Shown here: piece by piece, positions 52 to 61,874 of the stretch
How positions within the stretch are numbered: the stretch's first letter is position 1
How the letters are laid out: each line of letters begins with the position of its first letter
DNA from: a virus
Reading direction: 5' to 3' (one strand)
Virus record (IMG/VR): IMGVR_UViG_3300037153_000606
Length of the DNA: 64,000 nt
Position numbers and translations under genes: made by a program
Notes under the pieces: model-generated
Seen by the model: the letters and a program-made list of their open reading frames with translations, nothing else
What the model was told of the DNA's origin: nothing
The model's database searches: none

Positions 52-116
52 GACGTGGCTAGGCGTGGCCAGGCTAGGCGAGTCAGGGCCCGGCACGGCG
101 AGGCACGGCATGGCAG
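52..116 (+). ncRNA. Solo GGY-NN guide-like unit (12 pentamers + GGCAG end)
   Basis: GAC-GT GGC-TA GGC-GT GGC-CA GGC-TA GGC-GA GTC-AG GGC-CC GGC-AC GGC-GA GGC-AC GGC-AT GGCAG; same grammar as the 15703-17275 array. Confidence 0.6.
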
Positions 117-5491: not shown

Positions 5492-5493
5492 CC

Positions 5494-9439: not shown

Positions 9440-9465
9440 GTGATGAATCTTTGCGGAGGTGAGTG

Positions 9466-12400: not shown

Positions 12401-13263
12401 ACGAGAACCTGAAGCTGCAGCGGCGGCTCGCCGCCAAGGACAGCCAGATCCAGCGGTTGACCTACGGTCTGCAGGCGATCGCCCAGCATCTCGGCCCCGA
12501 CGTGGACACCCTGGTGCGTTCGGCCATGCTGCGCAAGCGGGCCGACGAGCAGAACCCGGCCCAGCCGGTGCCCGAGCCCGCGCCGGAACCGCCGACCGAG
12601 TCCACCGTGCAGGCCGAGACGCCGGAGGCGTTCGCCGACGTCACCGCGCCGGGCATGGTGCCGGGGTCCACCCAGGACGTGGCCGCCGACGCCGTCTCCA
12701 CCGCGTACACGCCCGGTCAAGACGTGGGCGCGCCGCCACTGCGCCAGTTGGTCGACGTGACCCGGCCCATCGACGGCACCCAGGGACCGCGCCCGTTAAG
12801 CGAGACCAAGACCAACGTGGACGTGCGGGTGGGCAACCCGATGAACCCGCAGACCGCGTTCCCGCTCGGCGGTGACTTCGCCCAGGCGCAGCGCACCGGT
12901 TCGGTCAACGGCGGCAGCGGGGACCTGAAGACGATGGCCTCGATCCGGCTGGCCAGGCTGCGCATCGCGGCCAACATCGAGGACGGCGAGGACCTGGCCA
13001 TCGCGCAGCGCATCGCCGCCGAGCTGGACGTCCCGGCGATCAACGCCGAGATCGCCACGCTGTCCAACGTGATCAAGGCGAGTGCGGCGCGCCGCCAGCA
13101 GCAGCCACCGCCGCGCGGAGTGCCGCCGCGCCCGGCTCCGGGGGTGGGCCGCACCGTTCCGCCGATGACCCGTTCGGCCGGGTTGCGCACCGCATCGCGG
13201 CCGGACGCCGAGGACGCCGACCTGGCGCTGGTTTTCCTCTCCGAGCAAGCCCTGTCCAGCTGA
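9466..13263 (+). CDS. Capsid maturation protease / scaffold polyprotein with inserted domains
   Basis: GGAGGT RBS (GTG 9463 or ATG 9466); FIGKPVFVNH, TSMGC, FFENSLLVEPPADP protease-like motifs; Zn fingers, acidic tract, coiled coil; lies upstream of decoration and capsid genes. Confidence 0.75.
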   Translation: MFRKFASAEVLAVAKGESLKKDAHRAVFSFVPRPGFLYVRSRSISSRCNDNYDFFGADEIAKSYRTFIGKPVFVNHNNSDHRRARGMVIDAVLHRDRNADGSPDFWVEALMEVDAETYPKLAKSILSGEIDRTSMGCDVELSKCSYCGNEATSPLEYCQHIPGKKGKRIYKMLPDGRREGQLVFEICSGLSFFENSLLVEPPADPTAYFLGQPVLGPGLEHLRQKAANLQAVLEEQPAAPRHDMPSRASTNQARPLQRTAAAGDDWHVGMDPERRRKAEEAAGKLWEGFHQIMDPGSTPASRVSDRNMRVMNNLQNLGYQPHHIKFEDDEDEGHPYAHIQGPKGWYGVDYGGPHMEIRHQATGNESHDLINLQHYDKETREQHRMPGYGPHEAEADLHHWVHGDPEETGGSAEYLEHNDPRIKRWIGRHQAALQVEAVTQEHAEDYLNEHPISPTHILSRVEQAASDPATLHSGMKWYDDAHGMAKTMASHHGVPLQHAAGALGVYSSSSAPAPNFHMASIALHAGKGIWARESGGSAEHGYKGSPMASEADAKKVDRIFSGEHYNDVIGSSKTKHYARLIHDPSNDHDVVIDRHAVAAAIGHYGNSGEPYNNVAGPMENVNAKGAGKLYDRFSDAYRQATHHLNTSPEYSPLRKHMVRSGLLGEGEKIKPHQVQALAWIAQKDISDQHARNDMTNANQRAIDDWQNHYTSRYGVDAHHPVSGKGFYGQEPTPAKAASMQRLSYGETKAPQDVDTLRDERCAICGNDTAYDGRECLVCGYIAPPKALGDPDVDKAKHLDELKQSVDDALSEVDPSRPGADFDPGDLDEIQAEIGEAGTPPMVCPNCDSVFDPAEEEINAGDTCPDCGQAEVAEAEPEEGEGDAQDVAEDEATEGLPGEQAEDQDVPSGDEDEDADEDEEDEDGEPDDEDEEDEEDKRRRRPVASRSATSKYRPPSKGYDMQKALAALAELQALVEHQQHENLKLQRRLAAKDSQIQRLTYGLQAIAQHLGPDVDTLVRSAMLRKRADEQNPAQPVPEPAPEPPTESTVQAETPEAFADVTAPGMVPGSTQDVAADAVSTAYTPGQDVGAPPLRQLVDVTRPIDGTQGPRPLSETKTNVDVRVGNPMNPQTAFPLGGDFAQAQRTGSVNGGSGDLKTMASIRLARLRIAANIEDGEDLAIAQRIAAELDVPAINAEIATLSNVIKASAARRQQQPPPRGVPPRPAPGVGRTVPPMTRSAGLRTASRPDAEDADLALVFLSEQALSS

Positions 13264-14907: not shown

Positions 14908-15738
14908 ATGCCTCGGCCGCCGTCTCCAACGACTTCGAAGACGTGTCAACGTGACGGTTGCGATAACCGATTCGAAGTCACCCAAGCCAAAGCTCAGAGG
15001 GATCGTCGATTTTGTTCGAAAGATTGCTCGAACAAAGCCACCGCGCTAATCCGTGGCGCTTCGTATCGAGCCAGTCATGGGTATAAGCCGCCAGTTTGTC
15101 CATGTGGTCGTTCTATCCAACCGAGACCGGGCCAGCGGTACGTCTATTCGAAGAAATATTGCGACATGGAGTGTCGTGCTCGATTTAGCCCGAGGCGACA
15201 ACCCAATCCTGAAAAGTGGGGTTCATACACGTGTCGCGTGTGTGGCACTGAATTCACCCGCCGGAAGAACTCTCGTAATGCCAAGATCTATTGCAGCCTT
15301 GCGTGTGCCAACAAGGAGACCAAGAAGAAGCATCACATCGTGTTGCGCGATGACGATGTTGTGTTCGACAGTGCCTGGGAGGCGTTCTTTTACGGCGCGT
15401 GCAAGATCGCGAAGATCCCGATCGAACGGTTCGACCGAGATCATGGTGTTGCCTACGACCCAGAATACCTGGATCGGTGGTACGCGCCAGACTTCTGGTT
15501 GCCCGACGTCCAGGCATGGGTCGGTCGCACCGGCGTTGCGATCGAAATCAAAGGTGTTGAAGACGACCGCGACGAAACCCGGTGGACCGCCTTCCGGTCG
15601 ACGGGAGTCGACCTGGTGGTGATGGACCGGTACCGGATGGAGAACCTGTCTGCACACTCGTTGTCCGACATCCTGCGAGTCGCCACGATGAGGGACAATC
15701 CCGCCTTGCCATGCCAAGCCGCGACACGCCTAGCCTAA
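14908..15738 (+). CDS. Free-standing endonuclease: Cys-rich zinc-finger repeats + PD-(D/E)XK domain
   Basis: Repeated CxxC..(F/Y)CS..C units; FDSAWEAFF..YAPDFWLP..IEIKG; lower-GC 5' half; 3' end runs into the array. Confidence 0.75.
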   Translation: MPRPPSPTTSKTCQRDGCDNRFEVTQAKAQRDRRFCSKDCSNKATALIRGASYRASHGYKPPVCPCGRSIQPRPGQRYVYSKKYCDMECRARFSPRRQPNPEKWGSYTCRVCGTEFTRRKNSRNAKIYCSLACANKETKKKHHIVLRDDDVVFDSAWEAFFYGACKIAKIPIERFDRDHGVAYDPEYLDRWYAPDFWLPDVQAWVGRTGVAIEIKGVEDDRDETRWTAFRSTGVDLVVMDRYRMENLSAHSLSDILRVATMRDNPALPCQAATRLA

Positions 15739-17275
15739 CCTTGCCACGCCGAACCAGGACTGCCGCGCCCTGCCAAGGGTTGCCCCGCCCAACCCAACCG
15801 GGCCTCGCCTGGCACGCCGAGACGAACCCGGCCAAGTACCGCCGTGCCATGCCGCACCTTGGCAGCCTCACCGAGCCATGCCGAGCCATGCCCATCCACG
15901 CCGTGCCCTGACCACCATGCCGTGCCTGCCGAGCCACGCCAAGCCTTGACCCGCCCTGACGGGCCGAGCCTTGCCCTGACTGCCGAACCACGCCAAGCCA
16001 CACCAAGACCCGACCTGCCAAGCCGAGCCGTGCCGAGCCATGCCTGCCCCGCCGCACCACGCCGCACCATGCCGCTGCCCTACCGTGCCGCACCCTGCCC
16101 GCCTTGCCCAGCCAAGACGTGCCACTCCAGGCCAAACCCTGCCCGCCTTGCCTCACCTCGCCGTGGCCCGCCCAACCGCACCGAGCCCCGCCAAGCCTGC
16201 GTCGCCCCGCCGTGACCCGTCACGCCGGGCCCAACCAAACCACGCCTGCCCGACCGAGCCCTGCGTTGCCCTGCCTGGACCAACCGCGCCTCGCCTGCCA
16301 TGCCCCACCTGGCCAGACCATGCCCAGCCGTGCCAGCCTGCCAAACCGAGCCCTACCGAGCCGTACCCAGACGAGCCAAGCCACACCGTGCCCGCCCAAC
16401 CGGGCCGCACCGGGACTCGCCGAGCCCTACCTTGCCTGCCTTGCCGAGCCGAGCCTCGCCAAGCATTGCCATGCCCAGCCGTGCCTGCCGAACCGAGCCC
16501 TACCGGGCCGAGCGGTGCCCTGCCTGGCCTAGCCGCGCCGCGACTGCCCTGCCTTGCCTCACCCAGCCTTGCCGAGCCGCACCAAGCCTTGCCGCGCCTG
16601 CCGTACCTCGCCCAGCCGAGCCCGGACGGACCTAGCCCCACCGCACGGTGCCCTGCCGAGCCATGACTGCCCTGCCCTGCCGCACCGAACCGAGACGTGC
16701 CGGACCACCCGGGCCAAGCCACGACTGCCGTGCCACACCCTGCCGACCATGCCCAACCCAGCCATGCCGAGGCTGCCCCGCCGTACCGGACCCGGCCGCA
16801 CCAAACCAAGCCATGCCTGCCGCGACCTGCGATGCCCTGCGGTACCAGGACATGCCGTGCCTGCCGAGCCGGGACCCGCCCCGCCATGACTAGCCATGAC
16901 CGGACTTGCCCCACCGAGCCTGCCCAGCCACGCCTTGCCCAGACTTGCCAGGCCTTGCCGTGCGCTGCCAGCCGAGCCAAGCCTTGGCTGCCTCGCCACG
17001 CCGAGCCCTGCCGAGCCCACCTAGCCTTGCCCTGCCACGGCTGCCCTGACATGACCCGCCGTGCGATGCCGAACCGGGCCGGACCATGCCTGCCTACCAG
17101 GCCACGCCCCGACTCGTCCCGCCTTGCCTTGCCTGCCGGGCCGAGCCTTGACTAGCCATGCCTAGCCACGCCATGCCGAGGCTGCCCAGCCATACTGCGC
17201 CGTGCCGAGACTTGCCCCGCGACGACCCGACATGCCTGCCCGACCTCGCCACGCCCACCTAGCCGTGACTGCCAC
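15703..17275 (-). repeat. GGY-NN pentamer array, ~29 units; putative guide-RNA array (VIPR-like)
   Basis: Plus strand reads RCC-NN in 5-nt register, broken about every 8-13 pentamers by a 4-nt step (gcct/gact/ggct/gccc); downstream of and co-oriented with a RAMP-like gene. Confidence 0.85.
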
Positions 17276-17363: not shown

Positions 17364-17819
17364 TCAGCTCGCCTGATGCTCGCCGTTCAGGTCGTCGAGC
17401 ACCATCCGGGTGAACTCATCCAAGTGACGGTACTGAGCTGCTAGCGCACGCCAGCGCCGTTCCGCCTCCTGCAGGATCAACCTCCGCTTGAGCGGGTCGA
17501 GCGCGATGTCCTCGACCGGTTCATAGTTCGGTTGGTGCGCCGTAGGGCGCGACACCGCGATGTACTTGCGGACCCGTTTCTCCTCGTCCGATGCATCCCG
17601 GTAGACCACCTTCACCGAGGTGATCAGCTTGTGGGCCTGGGTGAGCCGGTGTTTCTCCCCGGCCACCCGGTTGTCCCACTCGAAACGCGAGTACAGCGGG
17701 TGTTTCCTGCCGAGCGACTGGACGTCGGCCAACACCGCCCGAGGAGTCAGCTCGCCCTGTCGTTGGCGAACCTCCTCAAGCTGGCGAGCCAACTCCTCGT
17801 GAGCGGTGAAGGCGGTCAT
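17364..17819 (-). CDS. Accessory protein of the RAMP/array operon, function unknown
   Basis: 151 aa; starts 3 nt after RAMP-like gene stop; LTPRAVL..HPLYSRFEWDN..AGEKHRL.QA..LI. Confidence 0.8.
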   Translation of the reverse strand: MTAFTAHEELARQLEEVRQRQGELTPRAVLADVQSLGRKHPLYSRFEWDNRVAGEKHRLTQAHKLITSVKVVYRDASDEEKRVRKYIAVSRPTAHQPNYEPVEDIALDPLKRRLILQEAERRWRALAAQYRHLDEFTRMVLDDLNGEHQAS

Positions 17820-17822
17820 GGC

Positions 17823-18452
17823 TTAGTTGATGACCGTGATCTCGCGGGCCTGGTCGATCTCGAACGTCCCGTACTCGCCGTTCTTCTCCGGACGCCACTC
17901 ACCGACACCGACGGTGAGACCGGCGGCGGAGATGATCGAGAGCACCGAGTCGCGGGTGATCGCGGACTTGACGTACTGCACGGTCAGCTCGGAGGTCCAG
18001 TCCGGGAACTCGGCGCGGTAGCGCAGGTCGGTGCCACTGATGCCAACCGTCACCATGTCCTCGCGCATCTTCGGCTCGCCGACGATCGGGAAGAGCGCCT
18101 GGTTGCAGTGTTCGCTCATCACGCCACGGAAGAACAGGAACTGGCGCAGCTCGGTCATCCGGACCGACTTGCCGTACAGCCGGGCGGCGGACACCGTCGC
18201 GGCCTTGAACGCGACGGACGGGAAGCCGTAGCCGTCGGCGGTGCGGTACAGCGAGGACTCGAACTCGGCCTCGGGGTCGCGGGGTTCCTTGATGGTCTTG
18301 CGGCCCTGCTGGGTGTCCAGCATCTGGCGCTTGGCCTTCTCCGACCAGTTGTGCACGATCAGCGGCATGGTGCCGACGACCGGCACGAGCAACGTCTCGA
18401 CGTCGATCTTGGTGATGTCCAGTTGGGCTGGAGCGGCGGCTGCTGCGGGCAT
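17823..18452 (-). CDS. Stand-alone Cas7/RAMP-like RNA-binding protein (Vipr-like)
   Basis: 209 aa from ATG 18452 with AGGAGG RBS; V.GTMPLIVH first strand, FPSVAFKAA helix, C-terminal glycine loop GVGEWRPEKNGEYGTF; no other cas genes in the window. Confidence 0.75.
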   Translation of the reverse strand: MPAAAAAPAQLDITKIDVETLLVPVVGTMPLIVHNWSEKAKRQMLDTQQGRKTIKEPRDPEAEFESSLYRTADGYGFPSVAFKAATVSAARLYGKSVRMTELRQFLFFRGVMSEHCNQALFPIVGEPKMREDMVTVGISGTDLRYRAEFPDWTSELTVQYVKSAITRDSVLSIISAAGLTVGVGEWRPEKNGEYGTFEIDQAREITVIN

Positions 18453-44526: not shown

Positions 44527-45803
44527 TGGCCGTCATCCAGAACGTCAACGAGGCACCGTCGTTCTTCGCCACCCAGTCCCAGAGCGACGTTTCCGACGAT
44601 CTGATCACCTCGCAGGTCGACCCGACCCAGCCGCAGGTCAACGGGCTGTCCAGCTACACCGACCCGCTGGTGGTCGACCACACGGTCAAGTCCCGGTTGC
44701 CGAACTTCGACCCCACCCTGTACAACCTCGATCCATCCAGTCACCTGATGCACTTCCTCGGTGCACTGCTCGGAGTGGCCGGGGTCGGCGGGCTGCGCCG
44801 CCAGCAGACCATCAACCGGATGTCGGGCACCATGGCGGGGGCGCACTTCCTGGACCTCGACGGGTTCTGGGGCGCGTTGTTCGGGGCGTACCGGATGTCC
44901 GACGAGCAGATCCCCGAAGTGGACGGGGCGATCCTCGACCCGGCCGTCTCGGTCGCCGACCCGGAGACCTGGGACGCTGCTCGCAGCCGGGACGGCAAGA
45001 TGCGCTCCCGGATCGTCCAACTGGCCGCCGGGTTCGCCCAGGGAGCCACTTACTCGGGAGTCCGGATGGCCGCCGAGGCGGTGCTGGGCAGCGAGGTGGA
45101 CGTCTCGGAATCGTGGATGATCGTGGACACGCTGCCACCGGGGCATGCATCCACCGTGCAGCCCAACACCTATTTCGCGGTGCAGTCGCAGTACCACACC
45201 TACGACGAGATGAAGGGCAACCGGTGGTCCGCCCTGCAGGGCGGGTACGTCGTGCCGGGCAACACCCCGCTGGGCAACCGGGGCGAGGTGGTGATCACCC
45301 CGAAGCGGGCGATCAGCGACGAGGAACGCATCCAGGTCGCGCACGTGCTGCAGGATCTCGCCCCGGCCGGGGTAGTGATCACCGTGCTGGCCACTCCGGC
45401 GGTGGCGCACCGCGAGGTGCTGCCCCGTTTCGTCTACGCCGACTCCTCGGACTGGTCGGTCACCTCCGTCATCGCCTCCTACCAGAACGTCGAAGACTTC
45501 GGCGATGTCATCTACCCGAGTGTGGACGGTGCGAACGCGGCCAGCCGCCCGGCGTTGAGCCAGTACAGCGGCGAGCGCTGGAACTACAACTCGCGGGTGG
45601 CTGCGGTCACCGCCTACCAGATGGTCAACAACGCGCAGTCCAGCACGGCGGTGGATGCCCAGACCATCCTCTACGCCGACGGCACGGCCCATGAGTACGC
45701 CCCGACGCTGGCCATGTTGGACCCGAAGCAGGGGGCGTTGATCCGCACCGGGACCGAGGGTGTGCTCACCAGCTACCCGTACGCGGCCGGGCGGTTCGGA
45801 TGA
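44526..45803 (+). CDS. Baseplate wedge (tail protein I-like)
   Basis: Follows J; LDGFWGALFG..R; LQDLAPAG. Confidence 0.7.
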   Translation: MAVIQNVNEAPSFFATQSQSDVSDDLITSQVDPTQPQVNGLSSYTDPLVVDHTVKSRLPNFDPTLYNLDPSSHLMHFLGALLGVAGVGGLRRQQTINRMSGTMAGAHFLDLDGFWGALFGAYRMSDEQIPEVDGAILDPAVSVADPETWDAARSRDGKMRSRIVQLAAGFAQGATYSGVRMAAEAVLGSEVDVSESWMIVDTLPPGHASTVQPNTYFAVQSQYHTYDEMKGNRWSALQGGYVVPGNTPLGNRGEVVITPKRAISDEERIQVAHVLQDLAPAGVVITVLATPAVAHREVLPRFVYADSSDWSVTSVIASYQNVEDFGDVIYPSVDGANAASRPALSQYSGERWNYNSRVAAVTAYQMVNNAQSSTAVDAQTILYADGTAHEYAPTLAMLDPKQGALIRTGTEGVLTSYPYAAGRFG

Positions 45804-48800
45804 CGTCGCCTCCGGCGGTCAACCCGGTCGGCACCGTCACGGCCCTCGCGCCGCTGTTCGTCGACCACTCCGATCTGGGCATCTTCAGCCAAGCGGTCAA
45901 CGCCACGATGCAGACCAGCCCCGGCGCGCGACAGCTGGCCGGACAGATGTTCTGGTCCACCGACGCACGCCCGGCCGACTCGCCGGTTCAGGAGACGCTG
46001 GAGATCTCGCTGTCCTCCACCCGGTTGGTGAACTGGATCAAGTTCGACATCTCGATCTTCCCGACCCTGATGGCGATCCAGTACTACGACGCGGCCAGCA
46101 ACAACTGGCTGCCGCTACTGGACCAGTTCGGCCAGCCCTATCAGCAAATGATCATGCGGTCGATCCCGGTGCAGCTGCCCAACCCGGTCAACGTGCCCGG
46201 TCACCTGCACCCCCAGCACTCCTTCGTGGGGCACTGGCGGTCGGTGTCGCAGCGGCTCAAGCCGACCTATCTGCAGCGGCTGCGATTCGTGCTGCAGCGA
46301 CTCAACAATGGTCTGGGACCGGTGAGCCCCCTGGGTGACCAGGTGCCCTACTCGCTGGCGCTGCGCAGCATCACCTTCGGTTACGAGGTCGCCACTCGCG
46401 CCGATGTGCCGCGCACCCTGCCGGTCGACGACACCTACAACCAGTCCTTCGCCTCCACCGATGACCTGCTCGGTTCTGCGATCGCGTTCTCGCTGCGTGA
46501 TCCGGTGGTCAACCGGATCGTCGACAACACCGACACTGACGCGGATGCGATCTGGGTATGTGAACCGCAGCCCTATCCCGGAGCGGTGGTGTGCTTCTAC
46601 GCCGACCTGCGCGACGCCACCGGGAATCCGCAACTGATCGACCAGATCTACATCAACCCGGTTTCCTCCGGGGCACACGTCACCGTCTACGTGTCCAACG
46701 ACCTCACGGTCGGCGGTTTCGATTCGCCCACCACCCCGTTGGACATCACCCAGGTGCAGACCGTCGGCACCACCCCGGTGACGATCCAGTACGGTCGCCT
46801 GCTCCATTTCGGTCAGTACGGCGAGCAGGCCGCGCTGGCCATCACCAATGTGCCGTTGGATGTGAACGACCCGGCCATGCGGCACAAGGCGGTGCTCGGT
46901 TACGACCCCACATTGCCGTGGTGGTTCGGGGTGACCGTGAGCCCCGGTTTCGACCAGGGGGTGGACACCGCCGAGCACCCGATCTTCGACTGTGGGGTAT
47001 GGCGGCTCTCGCTCACCGCCGACGGGGTGACGCTGATTTTCGCCGACGGGGATGCGCACATCTGCCCGATTACCTACCAGGGGTTGCAGGACACCTCGGT
47101 CGTGGTGAGTTACGACGGCGAGGGCACCTTCCACATGCACGCCCGCAACTCTTCCGACGACCAGACCGATGACTTCTGGGTGGTGCCGCTGCAGCCCACC
47201 CCGTCGCCGGTAGTGACTCTCGGGACCGATGTCGGGATGGAGTACTTCCTGAACTCCGACCTGACCTACATGGTGCTCAAGGAGGAGCTGGCCGACGGCA
47301 GCGACGGGTACTTGGACAACCCCGGCAGTTACTGCACGGTCGCCCAGTTCTCCGGCAACGACACGCCGCAGTCGCACAACGCACTGCTGCGCCTGGACCT
47401 GTCCGCGACCACCTTGATCGACGCCACCCACCCGTGGGGACTGTTCGGTGGCCCGAGCGCGCAGTACGAGAACCTGGTCTGGTCCCCGGTGCCGCGCGAC
47501 TTCGTGATGACACGCGGGTGGATGTACCTGCCGCCGACCGAGGCGCGCTTCGTCAAGCTGGAGATCACCAACCTGCAGGCGGTGCCTTATGACGTGGCGG
47601 TGGTGGGACCGCAGCAGGTGAAGACCTTCCCGCCCCAGGTGCTCGACGCCTACCGGGACCAGTTGATCAACACCGCGTCGGTGGTGCCGCCACTAGGGGC
47701 GGCCACCCAGATCTCGCTGTCTGGGACGGTGCCGTACGAGCTGCCGGTCTTCGTCTCCACCGGCGGCAACGGGGACCGGGGCTACACGAACACCGAGGTC
47801 TACATCTCCGACGACTACAGCGCCCAGGAGCGGCTGCGTGCGCTCAACGCGTCGGTGTGGAACTACCAGACTTGGCACGTGGGGATCCGGGCTCCCCGCT
47901 TCACGAGCGCCCAGGTGCATCGCTACACCCAGGAGACGATCACCCGCACCGGGAAGGTCGCCTACCAGTGCGGCCTGCGCCAGATCTCGTTCGCCTACTC
48001 CTCGTTCACCTCCCAGCAGGACACCGGGATGTACGAGGAGACGTTCTACTCCGATCGCAACATCAACAACGACCCCAACCAGACCAACATCGTCTATGAC
48101 CCTGATCTGGACGCGCTGTACTCCGGCGATACCACGACCAAGGCGAGCGCCACGTCGCTGGTCTACACGTCGTTGCGGGACGTGCGCGCGGTGCAGTTCG
48201 CGGTGCAACAGTCGCAGCCGGTGCAGCTGCTGCCCGACGACGAGTTCGAGGACCCGAGCTACTCGAACTGGACGCTGCTCGGCGATGTCGCACCGCCGCA
48301 GGAAGGGATCGTCACCTCGCCGGTGTTCGGTTCGCTGCTGCCGATCGACCGCCAGCTGGTGGGAGGGTTCTGGGCCGATATCGAGCCGGTGTACCACACC
48401 TGGGGCGGCATCACCGACCAGGGCAAGCTCTACAGCGATCTGGGGTCCAACGTCCCGAAGTCGGACGAGACCTACGGCGGGGTGGCCTCGGCCCCTGTCA
48501 CCCAACCGGCCGGTGGGCGGCTGTACGCGGCGGCACGGGTGGTCTCCGACCAGGACTTGTCCAGTCCGCTGTCGCTGCAAATCATGGACTCGGTCACCGG
48601 CCAGCCGTTGGCCGAAAAGTCGATCAACGTGAAGGCCAACCAGGTGACCGAGTGGTACGTCGGGTACACCGTCGGCGAGGGCGGTGAGACCACCGCCAAT
48701 ACGTGGGGCGATTTGACTGGTGCCTACCTGAACAACTTCCCGTCGTTCTCGGACAGCTTCCAGCGCGCCGACTCCACATCGCTGGGGCTGATGGACTCCG

Positions 48801-50584
48801 GCCAGCAGTGGCAGTCCCCGGCCTCCTCGGCGGGCTCGCTGGCCATCGTCAACAAGATCGCGGTGTGCAATGTCGCCGGGCAGGTCAGCTGGGTGGACAC
48901 CCAGACACCGTGGGGCACGCTGTCTGTGGTGCTGGGGAACTCGTTCACCACCGGCACCGCGTCGGCCTCGGTGCCGTTGCTCTACCTGGGCCATTACCGG
49001 CTGATGAACGACGGCCGGGTGGTGGACAGCAACACCGGCCGGGTGGTCGCCACCACCGCCGGGATCGCCACCGGAGATTCGCTGCAGGCCACATTCCTGC
49101 CCACCGCGCTGCTCTCCTCACCGCCGGGCGGCGTTGACCCGACCGTGCAGTCCTGGTCGTTCACGCTCTCCCGCAACGGCACCCAGGTCGCCACTCTGTC
49201 CAGTGCGCACGGCATCGGCACGATGCGCGGGCTGGCCGGTGCGGTCGGCCAGCAGTTCACCTCGTTCAGCTGGGTGCCCCGTGCGGCGGCCGTCCCGGCC
49301 GGGACGGTCATCCCGGCCCAGCCGATGCCCACCGACGGCGCGGAGGACCCGTCCGGGCTGCAGTGGGTGCAGGCCAACGGCCAGGTATGGAGCACTCCGC
49401 AGTCCCCCATGCAAAGTCCGCCGGTGCCACCCACGTGGGGAAGTCTCCCGGCGTGGCAGGGCGGCGCGAACACCATCACCGCCCCGGCCTTCCCGAGCGG
49501 TGATACCCCGGCCATCGTGATGGTCTCGACCGACACCGGAAACCAGTACGGCACGTTCATCTTCCGGATCACCCAGCTCGCCGCCACGATCGCGGCCAAC
49601 ACCTATTCGATCGCGGTGCTCGACCAGCCCAACGCGAACACCCAGCTGCAGCTGCAGGCCAACGGCGACCTGGTCCAGGTGGTGTCCGGGACGGTGACCA
49701 CCGTCAAGGCGGGGGTGATCCCGGCGGCGTCGATGACGACCGGCGACATCGCGATCAAGTACGCCAAGACCTCGCAGCTGTCCACGGCGTTCAAGACCGC
49801 TCAGGGCATCTCGAACAGCAGCGCCCAGAGCATGATCTTCATGGTCGACGACACGGTGGTCGGCACCTACTCCGGCAACAACATCTTCAGCCAGTCGATC
49901 CGGGGGTTGTTCGGTTACAACGACAACGCGGGGCACTACACCATCACCACCGGGTTCGGCTGGTTCACCGACGCCAACGGGGTGACCACCTCCTCGGGCG
50001 ACGAGACCTGGGACGACGTGAGCGCGCACGAGTCGCGTACCTGGGGCGACCTGTCGATGAACATCAGCGAGGACAACCCCAACCCGGTCTTCGTCCAGGT
50101 GATCCAGGAGAACGCCTCGGTCGACTCGTGGTACATGGATACCTTGTCGCTGTTCTCCGACCCGATCGTGTGGGAGTTCTCCAACAACGGCGGGAAGAGC
50201 TGGGTACCCGGTTACGACGTGGCCAACAACCCGGAGGGGGCGGTCGCGTTCAACCCCAAGAACCCGAACGACCTGGCCGCCGTGTCCAACCAGCTCTGCT
50301 ACCGGGTGACCATCTGGGCACCGGGGAAGTGGGTCAGCCACTTGGCGATCCGGCCCTGGTACCAGGGCTTCATGCGGTGCATGCCGTTCCGGCCGCAAGG
50401 CGTCCCGCAGGGCCCGAACATCAACCCGTGGGACCATTACCCGCCGATCGAGCTGGACCCGCGCTGGCAGGTGTGGCACCTGCCGATCCCGCGTGAATGG
50501 TGGTTCGCGTTCCGGGTGCCGGACACCAGGCCGCGCTACATCACTCCGTACGTCACCGACAACGTCGTGGTCAGTGGGGTCTGA
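45800..50584 (+). CDS. Large baseplate/minor tail protein
   Basis: 1594 aa, beta-rich, GC3-biased; DSFQRADSTSLG motif; synteny. Confidence 0.75.
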   Translation: MTSPPAVNPVGTVTALAPLFVDHSDLGIFSQAVNATMQTSPGARQLAGQMFWSTDARPADSPVQETLEISLSSTRLVNWIKFDISIFPTLMAIQYYDAASNNWLPLLDQFGQPYQQMIMRSIPVQLPNPVNVPGHLHPQHSFVGHWRSVSQRLKPTYLQRLRFVLQRLNNGLGPVSPLGDQVPYSLALRSITFGYEVATRADVPRTLPVDDTYNQSFASTDDLLGSAIAFSLRDPVVNRIVDNTDTDADAIWVCEPQPYPGAVVCFYADLRDATGNPQLIDQIYINPVSSGAHVTVYVSNDLTVGGFDSPTTPLDITQVQTVGTTPVTIQYGRLLHFGQYGEQAALAITNVPLDVNDPAMRHKAVLGYDPTLPWWFGVTVSPGFDQGVDTAEHPIFDCGVWRLSLTADGVTLIFADGDAHICPITYQGLQDTSVVVSYDGEGTFHMHARNSSDDQTDDFWVVPLQPTPSPVVTLGTDVGMEYFLNSDLTYMVLKEELADGSDGYLDNPGSYCTVAQFSGNDTPQSHNALLRLDLSATTLIDATHPWGLFGGPSAQYENLVWSPVPRDFVMTRGWMYLPPTEARFVKLEITNLQAVPYDVAVVGPQQVKTFPPQVLDAYRDQLINTASVVPPLGAATQISLSGTVPYELPVFVSTGGNGDRGYTNTEVYISDDYSAQERLRALNASVWNYQTWHVGIRAPRFTSAQVHRYTQETITRTGKVAYQCGLRQISFAYSSFTSQQDTGMYEETFYSDRNINNDPNQTNIVYDPDLDALYSGDTTTKASATSLVYTSLRDVRAVQFAVQQSQPVQLLPDDEFEDPSYSNWTLLGDVAPPQEGIVTSPVFGSLLPIDRQLVGGFWADIEPVYHTWGGITDQGKLYSDLGSNVPKSDETYGGVASAPVTQPAGGRLYAAARVVSDQDLSSPLSLQIMDSVTGQPLAEKSINVKANQVTEWYVGYTVGEGGETTANTWGDLTGAYLNNFPSFSDSFQRADSTSLGLMDSGQQWQSPASSAGSLAIVNKIAVCNVAGQVSWVDTQTPWGTLSVVLGNSFTTGTASASVPLLYLGHYRLMNDGRVVDSNTGRVVATTAGIATGDSLQATFLPTALLSSPPGGVDPTVQSWSFTLSRNGTQVATLSSAHGIGTMRGLAGAVGQQFTSFSWVPRAAAVPAGTVIPAQPMPTDGAEDPSGLQWVQANGQVWSTPQSPMQSPPVPPTWGSLPAWQGGANTITAPAFPSGDTPAIVMVSTDTGNQYGTFIFRITQLAATIAANTYSIAVLDQPNANTQLQLQANGDLVQVVSGTVTTVKAGVIPAASMTTGDIAIKYAKTSQLSTAFKTAQGISNSSAQSMIFMVDDTVVGTYSGNNIFSQSIRGLFGYNDNAGHYTITTGFGWFTDANGVTTSSGDETWDDVSAHESRTWGDLSMNISEDNPNPVFVQVIQENASVDSWYMDTLSLFSDPIVWEFSNNGGKSWVPGYDVANNPEGAVAFNPKNPNDLAAVSNQLCYRVTIWAPGKWVSHLAIRPWYQGFMRCMPFRPQGVPQGPNINPWDHYPPIELDPRWQVWHLPIPREWWFAFRVPDTRPRYITPYVTDNVVVSGV

Positions 50585-52376: not shown

Positions 52377-55300
52377 ATGAGCGCGCTTCGCGACACCATG
52401 CCGTACGACTTCACCAGCGGGCCGTATGACGAGGACACCACCAAGACCTACACATTGCCTTTCGACGTCACCATCGGCGGGATCACCACCGACCAGGTGA
52501 CGGCGTGCTGCTGCGGGTGGATCGCGTTTGGCACCTTGAACTGGTCGGAGGACACCGATCAGGGTGGTACGACCGGGCGGTTCCCGACCGGGGATCCTGC
52601 CGCAAGCGGGCTCACTTCCGGTGGGTTGGTCTGTGCTTTCTTCGCACCGATCCCGACCGGCCAGGAAGGATCGCCCGCCTCGGTCAGCACCACCACCATC
52701 GGCGGGGTACAGGCCTGGACCATTACCTGGCCGTTCCAGTATCTCGGTGGCGACTACATCACCAATGCGTTCCAGGTGGTGGTCTACAACAGCCCCGGCG
52801 GGTACCAGATCGAGATCAACATCGGCTCGATCCTGGTGGATCAGTGGCCGACCGACACCGCACCGGCGGGGATGCCGATGTTCGGTATCTACGTCCCGAC
52901 TGCATCGGGTGAGACGACGATCCTGAGTGAGCCGGTGGCCGGTGCGTGGCTGGACTCCGACTCCGTGCACGGCCTGGCGAACAACACGGCCGGTACTGAC
53001 ACGACCCCGGGCCGCTACACCTACGTCTCGGCAGCCCCTCCTCCGCCGGTCACCCTGCATGCCGTCGCGCACCTCTACCGGGTGGTGCAGGACGCCGCCG
53101 GAAACATCCTGCCGGGTGCCCAGGTGTCGCTGTGCGATCCGGGTTCGACCAGCATCATCCCGAACAAGCTCTACTCCGACGTCAACCTCACCGTGCCGAT
53201 CTCCAACCCGTTCACCGTCCCGAACGGGATCATCGACGTCTACCTGGAACGACCCCGCAGTGTCACCGTGATCACCGTGTACGGCGGCAGCACGATCACC
53301 GCCGACTACCTGGAGCTGATGCCGCTGGCCGAGAACATCCTCGCGGCCACCGGCCCGGTCGTGATCGACAACGACGCGTTCGCCGGTGGCGTGCTGCAGA
53401 TGGTCAACTCGGCGACCGCCGAGTGGGTGGAACCGTCGTTCCTGTCCGGCGGGGTGGCCGAGATCCAGGCCGGTGAGAACGTCACTGTCGATGCGACCGA
53501 TCCCGCCTCGCCGGTGGTCTCGGCCAACCCCGGTGTCACCACGATTCAGCCTGGTACCAACATCACCGTCGATGCCACCGACCCGGCCCAGCCGATCGTC
53601 GCTGCCGCAGGTGCCGCCGACGGCGATGTGGCGGCGCTGATCGCGAGCCCGACCAGCAACACCCACCAGCAGCTGAACACGCTCTACGGCGGCGCGCCGT
53701 CGAAGTGGTTCGTGCAGAACACCCCGTACGCCACGCACACCGCCGTCCCGACCCCGTACGAGGGGGACGAGTTCCTCTACACCACGACCGGTGCCGCGCC
53801 GCGTGTCGCCGGGGACGTGTGGACATACCACGCGAACGCCTGGGCCAAGACCGGCAACATCCTCGGCCCGCAGGGCCCGACTGGTGCTACCGGTGCGACT
53901 GGTCCGCAGGGGACGACAGGCGCGACAGGCCCACAAGGAACCACCGGTGCAACTGGCCCGCAGGGTTCGAAGGGTGATATCGGGGCGACCGGTGTTACCG
54001 GTCCGCAAGGACCTGCCGGTCCTACCGGCCCCACCGGTACGACCGGATCACAAGGCCCGAAGGGCGACAAGGGCGATACAGGCGCGACAGGCCCGGCCGG
54101 GCCGACAGGTCCCACCGGGTTGCAGGGGAATGCCGGTCCCATCGGCGCAACAGGCCCGCAGGGCGACACCGGCCCACAGGGACCGATCGGGCCGGAAGGG
54201 CCGGTAGGGCCGCAGGGTGCGGCCGTCTCGGTGAAGGGCACCGTGGCGACCTCGGCCGACCTGCCCGCGACCGGCAACACCGCCGGGGACGGGTTCGTCG
54301 TCGATGACACCGGGCACCTGTGGTCCTGGACGGGTTCGGAATGGGTGGACTGTGGGGCGTTGCAGGGACCGCCCGGTGATCAAGGACCCTCCGGGGAGGG
54401 CGTGCCGACCGGAGGCACCGCCGGTCAGGTACTGTCCAAGATCGACGGGACTGATTTCAACACGCAATGGGTCGACCAGACTGGTTCCACCGAGGTCATC
54501 GACACCCGTGCCGCCGGAACCTCAGCCGATGATCTGACCACTCCCGGCCTCTACCTCATCACCGCGAGCCATCTGGGCATCGTCAACGCCCCAGTGGTGG
54601 ACTCCGACTGCGTTGGCATCCTGACCGTCGACAGGTTCGATGATGCGTCGGAAGGCACTAACTACATCACCCAGGTTTGGCGAGCCACTGATGTCGACAG
54701 GGGAGGTGATTACTGGTTCCGGTCCACCAATTACCTACCTGACTGGTTTGACTGGACACCCATCAAGATGGCGCTGTACCAGACCGTCAACGACTTCAAC
54801 CTAGTGATGTTACCTGGTGTGTACCAGACATTTGGCAACTACCCAAACGGTCCTGGTTACGGCAGTAACGGGTTGCTTGTGGTGCAAACTCTTGGCAATG
54901 GAGCGGTCAACCCGGATGCGATGACCCCACCGACGCAAGTCCAGTATTGGACCGCTACTCTCAGTAATTATTCCTATCGACGCATCTACACCAACCTGGA
55001 TGGTTGGAGCGCATGGAGTTTCGTCGGTTCTCTCCCGGCAGGCGGGAGTACCGGGCAGGTTCTCGCCAAGATCGACAACAATGATTACCGCGTCCAGTGG
55101 GTTGACCAGGCGGCAGGCGGTGGCGGTACCCCGTCGAGCACCGTCACCACCCAGGCAATCGGAGACACCGGGATAGTCGGCACCAGTACCAACTTCGCCC
55201 GCGAGGACCACGAGCACGGGATGCCCAACTTCGGCGGCGTCACGGCGCAGACCACTCCCGGAGCAGCATCATCGAACGGGTCGGCAACGTCGGTTTCCCG

Positions 55301-57161
55301 CAGCGATCACACGCACGGCACGCCGCTCAATTCGTTACCGACCGGAGGATCCGCAGGACAGGTTCTTTCCAAGATCGATTCAGCTAGTTACAACGTGCAG
55401 TGGGTGACAGTCGGCGTCTGGCGCGGTGAATGGGTGAGTGGCACAAGCTATGCCGCCAATGATGTCGTTACGAGTACCAGCATCTCCGGGGCCAATATCA
55501 CGGCGACCTACGTGTGCACATCAGCGAACACCGGCACATCCGCACCGTCGCTGGACACCGCACACTGGGCCGAACTGGGTGCTCGGCACAACATCAACGG
55601 CAACCTCACCCAGACGGAATCGGGAAACCCGCCGACCAACGCAAGGGAGTTGACACCGAAAAGCTACGTCGATTCACACGACATGCAGGCTGGCGGTACC
55701 GCTGGACAAGTGCTGACCAAACAGTCCGGCACCGACTACGACACTGCGTGGGCAGCACCTGCCGGTGTCATCACACCGGTGCAAACCATCAATCCAGCCA
55801 ATGGCGCGATCACCATCGATGTCAGCAAGGGTGATGCCTATCTGCAGGTTTCTTCGCCGGGGATCACGAGCATTGCGCTCACGAATCCGGTCGACAATCA
55901 GATCTTCAGGTTGACGATCAACCAAGGCATTTCAGGCAGTTTCCCGTACGACGTGATATGGCCGACGAACATTCAATGGGCCGGTCAGCCAGGAACAACT
56001 GGGCCCAACCCGAATATGGCGGCCAATATGACGATCACCCTTCGGTACCGGGCATCGGGTTCGGCGTGGATCGAACTTGAGCGCAGCCAGATGCCCATGG
56101 TCTACAAGGGTTCCTGGTCTGCGGCCAGCAACGCTCGTTTTCGGCGCGGTGACGTCGTGCTCTACAACGGCATGCCCTACGTCGCCACAGCGGACAAGGC
56201 GACGGCCGGGACCTGGGTGCCCGCCGAATGGCAAGCGCTCAGTGACCTGCCTACCGGCGGCACGGCTAATCAGGTGCTCACCAAGGTCGACGCAACGAAC
56301 TACAACACCGCTTGGCAGTCAGCAGCCCGGTGCAAGGTCGACACCTATGCGATAGCCGGTAGCTACACCTGGAACAAGCCCGCCGGGGCGATCATGGTCC
56401 AGGTCATAGGTATCGGCGGTGGTGCAGGTGGCGGATCTGGCAATACCACCGCATCGGCCGTTCTCGGCGTCGGAGGAGCGGGCGGTGCAGGCGGCGGATT
56501 GTTCAACCGCACCATCAACGCTGTGGACATTCCGGCGACTGTCTCGGTCATAGTCGGCGCAGGTGGGGCGGGGGGTGCCAGTGTCTCGGCCAACTCCACT
56601 GCAGGGAGCAACGGTGGCGGCGGGACGGGCTCGTCTTTCGGAGGTGCGACCTTCTATTGCAGCACCGCTACATCGGTTGCTGGATCCGGATCATCTACCT
56701 CGATTCCCTCAGGTATCTACGGCGGGGGTAACGGTGCCGGGGGCGGGAGTGGTGTGGCGGGAGGAAGCGCTATCCCCGCTGTCTCTACAGTCGCTCCTCT
56801 GGGGCTGTTTGCCGGTGCGGGCGGTGGCGGTGGAGGTGGAGGGATTTCCGCTGCCAATGCCGCCGCCGCCGGTGGTTCCGGTGGGGCGACTTCGGCCGGT
56901 TCGGGGACTTTTTCGTCCGGTGGTGCCATCGCGACCAACGGCAGTGCAGGCAACCTCAATGCGTCGACCCCCAACTCGGTGTATGCCGGAAGTGGCGGCG
57001 GTGGTGGAGGTTCGGGGTTGACCGCAGCTGGTGGGTCTGGCGGTGCTGGGGGTTGGCCAGGGGGAGGCGGTGGCGGCGGAGGTGCCGCCCGCAACGGGTA
57101 CACCTCGGGGGCCGGAGGCAATGGTGCGGACGGCTTCGTGCAGGTCATCACCTGGTTCTAG
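52377..57161 (+). CDS. Long tail fibre with collagen-like repeats and Gly-rich C-terminal domain
   Basis: G-X-Y run ~53865-54220; five GGxxGQVL linkers; Gly-rich end [14 protein letters not shown]. Confidence 0.85.
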
Positions 57162-57298: not shown

Positions 57299-57622
57299 AT
57301 GTCGACGCTTGACTATGCCGCCGCGCGTGCCGTGGCGCGGGCGCGACTCCTCGAACGCGCGGTGCACGACTCGGGCCCCTGGCAGATCGAGATCGCCGGG
57401 ATCCGCGAGGACGCGGTCAAGGTCCGTACCCCGCACCGGGTGCTGTTCCTGGCCAATTTCTACTCCGTTCCCGACCCGGACGCCACGGTGGCGTGGCTGC
57501 TCTGCGATGGGCAGTTCCTGTCCTCCAAGGACATCCGGCTCGGCGACTCCGGGCCGTTCTCCATCGAGTGGTCCATCATCGGCCCGGATTCGCTGGAGCC
57601 CTCGTCACCGGCAGTCGCATGA
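57299..57622 (+). CDS. Hypothetical protein
   Basis: GAGGAGG RBS; ATGA overlap with helicase. Confidence 0.65.
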   Translation: MSTLDYAAARAVARARLLERAVHDSGPWQIEIAGIREDAVKVRTPHRVLFLANFYSVPDPDATVAWLLCDGQFLSSKDIRLGDSGPFSIEWSIIGPDSLEPSSPAVA

Positions 57623-59193
57623 CCGCATCACCGGCCGCCGCCGCCCGGCCGGTGATGGACAACGGGCGGCTCTTCCACTCCCCACTCGGCCTATTCGGCT
57701 TCCAGGCCGAGTGCGTGGCACGCGCCTACTACCAGGACGGGCTGCTCGCGGTCTGCGATACCGGGCTCGGCAAGACGATCATCTCGATGGCGCTGGCCGC
57801 GCAGCTGTTCCAGGACGACCAGGTCGACCTCGTCATCCACGTGGCGCAGAAGAACAAGATCGACAAGAGCGAGTTCCCGGCCGACTGGGCCCGGTTCAGC
57901 TCGCTGCGCACGCACGTCTACCACGGCACCAACCGGGGCAGGCGACTGGCCAAGGCGGGCACCCCGGACGTGCTGATCAGCACCTACGAGACGCTGCGCG
58001 AGGACCTGGTCATCTTCTCCGGCCGGTCCGGGCGGGCCCGCACCGACGGCATGCTGGTCGAGGTGCTCAAGCTGCGCACCGCACGGGTGCTGTGGATCTT
58101 CGACGAGATCAGCAAGCTGGGCAACCGGTCCTCCAAGCTGTACCGCGCCTTCGAGTACGTGCTCACCCAGCAGCGCAACCACGGCCTGCCGCCCCGGGTG
58201 CTGGGTCTCTCGGCTACCCCGATGTCCACCGACTACGAGCAGCCGTTCAACATCGGCCGGATCGTCTGGCCCGCCCGGATGCCGAGCGTCACCTACTTCG
58301 AGGACACCTACACCTACGGCCGCGACGACCACGGGCGGCTGCTGTACAAGCGCGGTGCCCGGGAGTGGTTCGCCGCCCAGTTCGAGCCGCTGATCTACCG
58401 CAAGCGGCGCACCGACCCGGACGTGGTCGACCAGATGCCCCGGCTGATGGAGAAGGTGCTCCCGGTCGACCTGCACCCGGAGCACCGTGCGCTCTACGAG
58501 GCCGTGGGACGCCTGTACGGCCCCGATCCCACCCCGAGGCAGCAGGACCTGCTGCTGATGGCCCAGCGGCTCACTGCGGGCCATCCCCGGGCACTGCTGC
58601 GCAGCGGCTCGGAACTGGCCAAGGCGGTGGTGGAGACGCTCGGCGCAGACCGGCTGCGAGCCGTCCCGTCGGCCAAGACGCTACGGCTGATCGAGCTGCT
58701 GTCCACACTGAAGGCGCAGGGCGACCCGGCGTTGGTGTTCTGCGCCTTCGCCGAGACCGTGCTGCCCGAGGTGGCCGCCGATCTGGTGTCCGCCGACCTG
58801 CGGGTGGGTATCTACACCGGAGGGCAGTCGTCCAGCTCGAACGAGGCCGCCAAGGCCGCGTTCAAGGCCGGAGAGCTGGACGTACTGCTGTCCTCGGACG
58901 CTGCGGCTACTGGGCTGAACTTGCCTCAGGCGGCCTACGTGATCGAATACGATGCCGCGTCCACGTTCGCCCTGCGAACACAGCGGTTCGGACGCGGGTT
59001 GCGTATCGACTCGGCCAAGTCCCATGTCTATGGCTTGACTATTGTGGCCCGCCGGACCGTCGAGGTCGGCCTGCTGCAGAGCATGCTCAAACGCAACGAC
59101 CTACAAGACGAGTTGCACGGCGATCGTGGTGCAGAAGGACATCTCGACGCCAAAGTGCGCCGAGATGTCTCCTTCGAGGCGTTGCGGAATTAG
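57619..59193 (+). CDS. SNF2-like SF2 helicase
   Basis: CDTGLGKT (I), FDEIS (II), SATP (III), GLNLPQAAYVIEYD (V), QRFGRGLRI (VI). Confidence 0.9.
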   Translation: MTASPAAAARPVMDNGRLFHSPLGLFGFQAECVARAYYQDGLLAVCDTGLGKTIISMALAAQLFQDDQVDLVIHVAQKNKIDKSEFPADWARFSSLRTHVYHGTNRGRRLAKAGTPDVLISTYETLREDLVIFSGRSGRARTDGMLVEVLKLRTARVLWIFDEISKLGNRSSKLYRAFEYVLTQQRNHGLPPRVLGLSATPMSTDYEQPFNIGRIVWPARMPSVTYFEDTYTYGRDDHGRLLYKRGAREWFAAQFEPLIYRKRRTDPDVVDQMPRLMEKVLPVDLHPEHRALYEAVGRLYGPDPTPRQQDLLLMAQRLTAGHPRALLRSGSELAKAVVETLGADRLRAVPSAKTLRLIELLSTLKAQGDPALVFCAFAETVLPEVAADLVSADLRVGIYTGGQSSSSNEAAKAAFKAGELDVLLSSDAAATGLNLPQAAYVIEYDAASTFALRTQRFGRGLRIDSAKSHVYGLTIVARRTVEVGLLQSMLKRNDLQDELHGDRGAEGHLDAKVRRDVSFEALRN

Positions 59194-59247
59194 CCTCGCC
59201 CTGCCAAGCCATGCCCCGCTGAGCCGCGCCGGGCCTAGCCATGCCGT
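59193..59247 (-). ncRNA. Solo GGY-NN guide-like unit (11 pentamers)
   Basis: gcctc gccct gccaa gccat gcccc gctga gccgc gccgg gccta gccat gccgt, directly at the helicase stop. Confidence 0.75.
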
Positions 59248-59274
59248 GCAGGAGCGAGTCTAGGCTCCGGACCC

Positions 59275-60824: not shown

Positions 60825-61874
60825 TCAGCGCCGTCCGGTGGACGTGTAACAGGACGCGGTAGCTCGCGCTATCGCACCAGCCCCACCTGTGCTCGCGGCA
60901 TTGAGCACCAAGGGTCCGCCGTCCAGCGAGACGGTAACAGTACCCACCGTCCCCGCCGGGGTCGAGGCATATACCGGATCACGTGAGGTCTGCACGAACT
61001 GCACATTGATCCCGATGTCTCGTTGTTGCCCGAAGTCATCGGTCGCGAACTGCATCGTCAATGACCGACAGCTGCCTGGATTGTCGTGGTCAAAGATCAC
61101 GTTGTCGGTATATTTCGGCGCGGTCGAGGTATCCACGATATCTGTTGTGTTGAACAGCGAGTTGCCGACTTGGGTCGTCTGGGGATAACTGCCACGTTCC
61201 GAGAACATCGGTGTGAAGTTGATGGTGGCGTAGCTGTACACCGGCGTGCCCTTACCGACGGCGAGTGCCGAGGACCCCCGGTAGGCCACTAGCCGGTAGT
61301 ACATCCTGCCCATCGGGATCTTGGGAGCGGTGACCGTGCCGGACGAGTGATAAAGCCGCATCACCGAGTGGTAGGTCGAGCCGTAGGTGCGTTGCAGGGT
61401 CAGCGACCAGCCGGAGGGCAGGTTGTGCGCCGCGTAGCTGAAGGTGGCCCCGGTGGAGTTCGCGGTGACGTGGGTGTGTATCCCCTTGAGGCTGACGCTG
61501 ACCGCCGGGAGCACCCCGACGTAGGACGACCTGGTGCCGGTCACCCAGCGGTGGTGGTAGACCGCGAGCCGGTACCGGTAGGTGCCGGTGTAGTTCAGCT
61601 TCGGCGCGGTCACCGTTCCGGAGCGGCGGGTGCCCAGCGCGACCACGGTGACCCACTTCTTGCCGGAGAGCCGTTGCAGGTAGCCGTGCGACCCGGCCGG
61701 GACGTGGTGTTCGGCGAAGCTGAAGACCTCCGAGTGCCTGACGTTGATGTAGCGCTGGCTGGCGTGCAGGCTGGCGTGGGCGGCGGCGGCTTGGGCCGCC
61801 GGTGCGACTGCCAGACCCCCGGCCAGCAGCCCCGCGCCGGTGAGCGCGGCGACCAGTTTCCGATTGACGTGCAT
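60825..61874 (-). CDS. Secreted protein with signal peptide and tandem beta-sandwich domains
   Basis: MHVNRKLVAALTGAGLLAGGLAVAPAAQA; duplicated LQR..SGTVTAPK..YRL unit. Confidence 0.75.
   Translation of the reverse strand: MHVNRKLVAALTGAGLLAGGLAVAPAAQAAAAHASLHASQRYINVRHSEVFSFAEHHVPAGSHGYLQRLSGKKWVTVVALGTRRSGTVTAPKLNYTGTYRYRLAVYHHRWVTGTRSSYVGVLPAVSVSLKGIHTHVTANSTGATFSYAAHNLPSGWSLTLQRTYGSTYHSVMRLYHSSGTVTAPKIPMGRMYYRLVAYRGSSALAVGKGTPVYSYATINFTPMFSERGSYPQTTQVGNSLFNTTDIVDTSTAPKYTDNVIFDHDNPGSCRSLTMQFATDDFGQQRDIGINVQFVQTSRDPVYASTPAGTVGTVTVSLDGGPLVLNAASTGGAGAIARATASCYTSTGRR

Follow-up and report, generated by a model that had tools for sequence, protein, structure and literature searches.

A predicted solo VIPR guide at the stop codon of a phage helicase gene spells the motif V of sister phages and lies beside a putatively resistant copy

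What is the function of a short and highly regular repeat placed exactly where a phage helicase gene ends? In the 64,000-nucleotide stretch analyzed here (the window; IMG/VR record IMGVR_UViG_3300037153_000606), a tract of pentamers starts at the stop codon of a gene for an SNF2/SF2-type helicase. The first-pass annotation of this DNA proposed that the tract is an RNA guide encoding a non-self allele of that helicase's motif V, and that it moves together with a recoded, immune 3' end of the gene and attacks related co-infecting phages as an analogue of homing. The system itself is not of a new kind: VIPR, a CRISPR relative composed of the RAMP protein Vipr, its RNA (vrRNA) and vap genes, was described in 2026 (bioRxiv 10.64898/2026.04.26.720920; structures in 10.64898/2026.04.26.720927), and the tract corresponds to a solo vrRNA of VIPR. 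vrRNAs consist of 9-16 YNNGG repeats in which the GGY is sequestered by Vipr and the NN dinucleotides pair with double-stranded DNA, skipping one base that is usually the wobble base; the outcome is transcriptional silencing with no cutting, and the natural targets are competing phages and satellites (10.64898/2026.04.26.720920). Solo vrRNAs with a self-match lower than their non-self-match have also been published (bioRxiv 10.64898/2026.10.15.759431). Judged from its sequence, the tract is a genuine solo VIPR guide that spells the helicase motif V of sister phages beside a resistant copy, and it is likely that it serves the phage's own VIPR by silencing the helicase gene of sibling phages while being linked to a resistant allele.

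Table 1. Features of the window that bear on the solo unit (positions are those of the window; RNA-strand features are given on the strand of the RNA)
Feature	Coordinates	Strand	Details
Solo vrRNA repeat tract	59193..59247	-	11 pentamers; plus strand GCC-NN, RNA (minus) strand NNGGY
Predicted promoter candidate for the vrRNA	59257..59262	-	-10-like TAGACT (TANNNT hexamer), 9 nt before the first NNGGC
Candidate vrRNA 3' hairpin/terminator	59138..59169	-	13-bp inverted repeat within the last helicase codons; on the RNA, it lies 24 nt past the tract
SNF2/SF2-type helicase gene	57619..59193	+	524 aa; PF00176 (SNF2-rel_dom) and PF00271 (Helicase_C); true start ATG 57619
Own helicase motif V, the guide footprint	58912..58944	+	GLNLPQAAYVI; non-matching, putatively resistant allele
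Low-GC3 tract, helicase 3' end	58870..59193	+	Begins at the GC3 change point
vipr gene	17823..18452	-	209-aa RAMP/Cas7-like protein; profile match to PDB 36pp_D 'SUSP1 Vipr protein', E=1.8e-7
vap-like partner gene	17364..17819	-	151 aa; 4683 homologues
Staggered vrRNA array	15703..17275	-	~30 units in 1.57 kb; 4-nt phase shift every 9-13 pentamers
Solo 11-pentamer unit	10177-10231		Within ORF 9463-13263 (1266 aa, PF23802 family), a structural gene
Solo 12-pentamer unit	55-114		Opposite orientation with plus-strand GGY; 15-bp hairpin after the tract; upstream of gene 179-2677

The repeat architecture of the unit is that of a vrRNA, i.e., 9-16 GGY-NN repeats with a constant triplet and a variable dinucleotide. 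The 55-base tract abuts the helicase TAG (59191-59193), the G of the stop codon being the first base of pentamer 1, and its constant triplet reads GCC ten times and GCT once (GGC and AGC, respectively, on the RNA strand). The dinucleotides form the series tc ct aa at cc ga gc gg ta at gt, exactly as first read. The window contains 70 runs of five GCCNN pentamers, where shuffled sequence would be expected to give 0.12.

Membership of VIPR is supported by the minimal RAMP protein encoded in the same genome (Table 1), a Vipr homologue that provides the RAMP protein in trans that had been postulated. Its AF2 model (pLDDT 87.5) finds Csm3, Cmr4 and type VII Cas7 in Foldseek (E ~1e-5), all of which are non-catalytic Cas7-type backbone subunits. 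The model of the 151-aa partner (pLDDT 95) shows only weak fold matches, which are winged-helix/MarR-like, and the same gene pair is present in Mycobacterium phage Donkeykong. The array follows vipr in the same orientation here and in three other loci (L127, L129 and L131), which makes four independent contexts, and the order vipr, partner, GGY-orientation array recurs in L127, a Naumannella prophage, and in L129, a metagenomic phage. A TRAP-like 11-mer ring, with 11 triplets separated by 2-nt spacers, was also considered for the tract and was dropped because the VIPR preprints show a helical Vipr filament.

The flanks of the tract, a promoter-like hexamer on one side and a 3' hairpin on the other, are consistent with a small antisense transcription unit. 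Hexamers similar to the candidate -10 element, TAGAGT in L068 and TAGGGT in L070d, lie ~10 nt ahead of the tracts of these loci, so that two families carry a similarly spaced hexamer; a sigma-70 consensus scan at the unit found no consensus promoter or terminator. The 3' flank has a folding energy of -28.8 kcal/mol (z=-3.7), and its best 45-nt hairpin reaches -27.5 kcal/mol vs -20 to -22 kcal/mol in four orthologues that lack the unit and encode similar C-terminal peptides. A hairpin just 3' of the tract is also found in most of 11 other solo units examined. vrRNA genes can overlap coding sequence, as the location of this hairpin within the helicase ORF and of another solo unit within a structural gene illustrates.

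The gap between the helicase stop and the next gene measures 81 nt here and 10-27 nt in matched relatives, and the alignment of the intergenic spacer with these relatives is too poor to set the boundaries of the unit's insertion. In the poorly aligning segment 59248-59300 the start of the downstream gene appears rearranged: the AGGAGCGAG of the window aligns with the ATGAGCG start of the corresponding gene in L041, L042 and L046, and the gene of the window now seems to start ~24 nt further on, at ATG 59275. Rfam returned nothing relevant for the region, and blastn against GenBank phages gave no match.

If the tract is a guide, its dinucleotides should be legible in DNA by the one-base skip, and a unit of the array offers a control for this decoding: array unit 16487-16541 has 38 exact 1-nt-skip matches in viral contigs, and the matches listed all read DELGDVLWYAA. 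Applied to the solo unit, the same reading aligns in frame with the motif V of the phage's own helicase (GGG CTG AAC TTG CCT CAG GCG GCC TAC GTG ATC), with 5/11 dinucleotides and 15/22 bases (68%) identical, as the first-pass annotation had it. Taken alone, these numbers are only suggestive. Shuffled units reach at least 15/22 within the own helicase gene in 1.7% of trials, and 15/22 is the best match in the 64-kb window, reached at 2 of ~128,000 positions on both strands.

The alleles of sister phages are a far better match. Among ~37 close helicase orthologues from metagenomes (rows down to E 4e-69; 35 aligned), the closest ones, 72-75% identical and belonging to metagenomic sister phages, have the motif V sequence GLN[LM]PEAGYI[CIV], and the base skipped by the guide is the codon wobble base. 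The allele of L039 (gene P0007, GLNMPEAGYIV) is matched by the unit at 10/11 dinucleotides and 20/22 bases (91%), that of L041 at 8/11 and 18/22 (82%), and those of L042 and L046 at 8/11 and 17/22. In the 2.3 Mb of sequence assembled from all loci retrieved, shuffled units attain maxima of 16-18/22. Compared as amino acids, the decoded unit agrees with P0007 in 10/11 positions and with P0008 and P0010 in 9/11, where the null gives at most 7. None of these relatives carries the unit, and that their alleles match it better than the own gene does bears out the proposal that the tract decodes to a non-self allele. Published target calls for VIPR require an NN match of at least 80%, a level that no self-match passed (10.64898/2026.04.26.720920). 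By this threshold, which was calibrated on other VIPR types, L039 and L041 are predicted targets and the own gene, at 68%, is not; nor does the 64-kb window contain any self-target at or above 80%.

The match has its limits. Only one orthologue lineage reaches 10/11, and the first dinucleotide (tc) matches no orthologue. The exact 11-codon NNx pattern has no match in viral contigs, and the exact 10-codon pattern yields, in metagenome and genome contigs, a single chance match and no further real target; this match, the same one in both collections, lies on a nanoarchaeal contig of 35% GC and contains an in-frame stop. That the scan found the target pattern in no cellular genome counts, by contrast, in favor of the guide reading.

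How would the carrier be spared by its own guide? The first-pass annotation spoke of an immune replacement 3' end, in a stretch where it had noticed many A/T-ending codons. Since the guide skips the wobble base, A/T-ending synonymous codons cannot give immunity, and protection of the own gene has to come from changes at codon positions 1-2. Such changes are present. The own allele differs from the guide at codon positions 1-2 in 6/11 codons. Across 288 alignment columns that are invariant in the five closest relatives, the helicase of this phage differs at nine, and the 11-codon footprint accounts for three of these nine lineage-specific changes (E->Q 437, G->A 439 and I->V 441; binomial P=0.002). 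All three hit letters that the guide reads, and no other 11-codon window of the helicase gene holds three such changes. The clustered substitutions look like a signature of escape or immunity, with the association between guide and putatively resistant allele resting on one lineage. They also provide a concrete allele pair, PEAGYI vs PQAAYV, with which the NN-mismatch tolerance of VIPR could be tested. A further point for the guide reading is a polymorphism: a 3156-nt contig recovered for this phage in another sample has one SNP relative to the window, at 59241, and it falls on an NN base of pentamer 10.

The residual match to the own gene could be read differently, namely as the trace of a decaying relic or as the means by which the unit acts on its own helicase through the 68% match, e.g., as an autoregulator. 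In favor of this reading, the population variant at 59241 lifts the self-match of the unit to 16/22. Against a relic stands the preservation of the unit: 10 of its 11 triplets are intact GCC, a second sample yields a contig (L047) with 54 of the 55 bases unchanged, and three further contigs have the 81-nt gap behind their helicase gene as well. Action on the own gene is likewise hard to reconcile with the published work, in which no self-targets of at least 80% were found and disturbed NN pairing abolished silencing (10.64898/2026.04.26.720920). Either version is therefore very improbable. When the GCT triplet served as a mark to look for homologous solo units, a single unit, L133, came up, and it is unrelated.

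Toward its 3' end the helicase gene changes in composition. For GC3, codon 417 (position 58870) is the best change point, with 0.94 to its left and 0.72 to its right (permutation p<0.0005), 30 of the 107 codons of the 3' end are A/T-ending, and GC3 over the same stretch is 0.86-0.97 in four orthologues. The shift toward A/T-ending codons from about 58900 had been correctly noticed; the break is compositional and shows no phylogenetic counterpart at the protein level. The nearest relatives do not switch at 58870, and identity to them is 0.72-0.76 to the left and 0.69-0.75 to the right, so that import from a distant lineage is not evident. A replacement 3' end that travels with the guide thus gains no support at the protein level. 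Three candidate causes of the low GC3 can be named: the constraints of an overlapping RNA gene, a patch from an unsampled close relative of lower GC, and the history of a probable intein that other members of the family carry after motif V.

The last of these candidates comes from two orthologues. In P0019, residues ~443-700 form a probable intein directly after motif V (...YV/C ... HN/C EYE, with a Cys...His-Asn/Cys junction), for which the matches to Hint_2 and Intein_splicing are both below the Pfam cut-offs, and the gene call of P0010 stops at the same insertion point. The footprint of the vrRNA ends at this intein insertion site. Additionally, GC3 is markedly low (0.64-0.83 vs ~0.9 for the genome) in the whole genes 52377-57161, 5272-8715, 14908-15738 and 60825-61874, the first of which is the second of two 1594-aa collagen-repeat fiber-like ORFs (the other being 45800-50584); this suggests that these genes are mosaic acquisitions.

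It could thus be argued that the guide is real but that the divergence of motif V and the low GC3 stem from an intein or homing-endonuclease past, or from mosaic recombination, and that a lineage already resistant acquired the guide. The probable intein of P0019, the seeming truncation of P0010 at the same point and the further low-GC3 genes of a mosaic genome all speak for such a history, as do more distant orthologues that have Q and V at the corresponding places of motif V. It does not readily account for three lineage-specific changes that all fall on guide-read letters and are clustered nowhere else in the gene, or for the position of the GC3 minimum (0.59 at 59095-59190, compared with 0.77 at 58870-59095), which coincides with the 3' flank and hairpin of the vrRNA. 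This separate origin of resistance is unlikely, and the preferred reading remains that of a solo guide whose carrier has changed the letters that the guide reads.

Weapons of this general kind are familiar from viruses. Both virus-borne mini-CRISPR arrays and the free-standing homing endonucleases of T-even phages are directed against relatives, with self-immunity conferred by polymorphism at the homologous site, and the T-even homing endonucleases lie close to their target locus. The tract has neither the CRISPR repeats nor the spacers of the former and, unlike the latter, it comes with no identified nuclease, its expected effect being silencing and not cleavage or gene conversion. The analogy with homing therefore holds in logic, i.e., a weapon near its target and a resistant self allele, and not in mechanism. 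RNA-guided homing in the full sense, as the first-pass annotation envisaged it, would require guide-directed cleavage and a repair that copies the guide and the resistant 3' end into the victim. The target lies only 250 bp from the guide, the self copy is putatively resistant, the low-GC3 stretch sets in 42 nt upstream of the footprint and extends as far as the unit, and some published VIPR types include nuclease vap genes (10.64898/2026.04.26.720920), all of which would suit such a process. Characterized VIPR, however, binds and silences without cutting; a Pfam search found no nuclease domain in Vipr or in the 151-aa partner, and a fold search of the partner found none either, its fold being weakly winged-helix-like; and an imported tract is not evident, protein identity being equal on both sides of 58870. 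Homing by cleavage is accordingly improbable for this locus.

Under the favored reading of a silencing guide, the following course of events can be envisaged. Most likely, the minus strand would be transcribed from the -10-like TAGACT through the eleven NNGGY pentamers to the hairpin in the last helicase codons. Vipr produced from its locus 41 kb away would assemble along the GGY motifs into a polymer that leaves the NN dinucleotides exposed, and the resulting Vipr-vrRNA complex would bind to double-stranded DNA, skipping one base as in published VIPR, and thereby read the motif V codons of the SNF2-type helicase in the closest sister phages. In mixed infections, or where a relative is resident, transcription of the relatives' helicase operon would be blocked, whereas the own allele, owing to its differences at codon positions 1-2, would escape.

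A phage that received the guide but not the resistant allele would have its own helicase silenced, so tight linkage of the two, here over 250 bp, would be expected to be favored by selection. Two distant relatives temper this argument. Just downstream of the helicase, L068 (5380-7190) has three solo units and L070 (5545-5915) has four, none of which match helicases, so that little can be concluded about selected linkage from position alone; the site after the helicase may simply be a favored landing place, which would weaken the linkage argument. A step further, guide and resistant allele might form a linked 'poison-antidote' cassette that spreads through sibling phages by recombination during mixed infection, a scenario that we regard as possible but doubtful. 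Were it true, any recombinant taking the guide would also have to take the resistant motif V, and solo units beside core replication genes would amount to RNA-guided marker exclusion or gene drive. In a more extreme version, guides may even be born locally from the neighboring gene. The present case could be used to test whether, in mixed infections, alleles are replaced because a guide is linked to a resistant one.

With published VIPR the system shares the GGY/NN pentamers, the wobble-aligned 1-nt skip, a vipr homologue with its partner and a staggered array of the type already reported (10.64898/2026.04.26.720920), as well as predicted targets in competing phages and no self-match of at least 80%. 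It differs from the VIPR systems studied experimentally, the type II system of Escherichia phage SUSP1 and that of a Pseudomonas fulva prophage, in being presumably an actinophage system. The tract is followed at a distance of 24 nt by a simple hairpin, with no recognizable pseudoknot tail; in staggered arrays such tails may be missing. The closest parallels are the solo vrRNAs of F5 satellites and VIPR-null SUSP1-family phages (10.64898/2026.10.15.759431), which also stand alone, away from a vipr locus, target the homologous locus of a relative with a lower self-match, and are wobble-aligned in functionally constrained codons. In contrast to these, the carrier phage here keeps its own Vipr, with the solo unit 41 kb from vipr, and the gene whose stop codon the guide adjoins is the one that it matches in sister phages. 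Its predicted target is a motif of a core replication helicase, whereas the F5 and SUSP1-family solos are aimed at vipr, a vrRNA, a satellite gene or a decoy.

The natural biology of VIPR is known mainly from one E. coli phage-satellite pair. The locus described here would add a natural example from a large, high-GC and presumably actinobacterial phage, with a guide apparently aimed at the catalytic motif of a core replication gene of siblings, matching 'escape' substitutions visible in the carrier's own gene 250 bp away, and a population SNP within the guide code.

A solo unit placed beside its own target did not prove to be a general layout: the two other solo units of the window did not yield a neighbor-gene target, and for unit 55-114 no target was found at all. 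Unit 10177-10231 was examined as a neighbor-targeting solo and rejected, its best candidate being a 14/22 match 130 nt downstream that orthologues do not improve. It lies in frame in a variable linker of the structural protein, where it is translated as AAPRHDMPSRASTNQARPL, and is followed on the GGY strand by a 9-bp hairpin. The AAPRHDMPSRASTNQARPL segment is missing in the orthologue P0064, and a similar peptide occurs in P0065.

Units in other genomes show further variations. Each of the post-helicase units of L068 is preceded by a conserved GATAGAGT motif, and their 3' hairpin stems vary between copies with the pairing kept. In L058 (8316-8736), vrRNA-like units lie beside tRNA sequence: a tRNA-Ile (8316-8390) ends 18 nt before one unit, and the flanks of other units carry GGTTCGA T-arm-like motifs, a layout that suggests processing by tRNA enzymes. 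vrRNA arrays can also hide under protein annotation in GenBank phage records. In Gordonia phage UmaThurman (NC_031249.1; L131, 3111-3440), gene 40 is listed as a 'hypothetical protein', yet it is made up of GGY-NN pentamers and immediately follows gene 39, which encodes the Vipr homologue; the supposed CDS is a vrRNA array.
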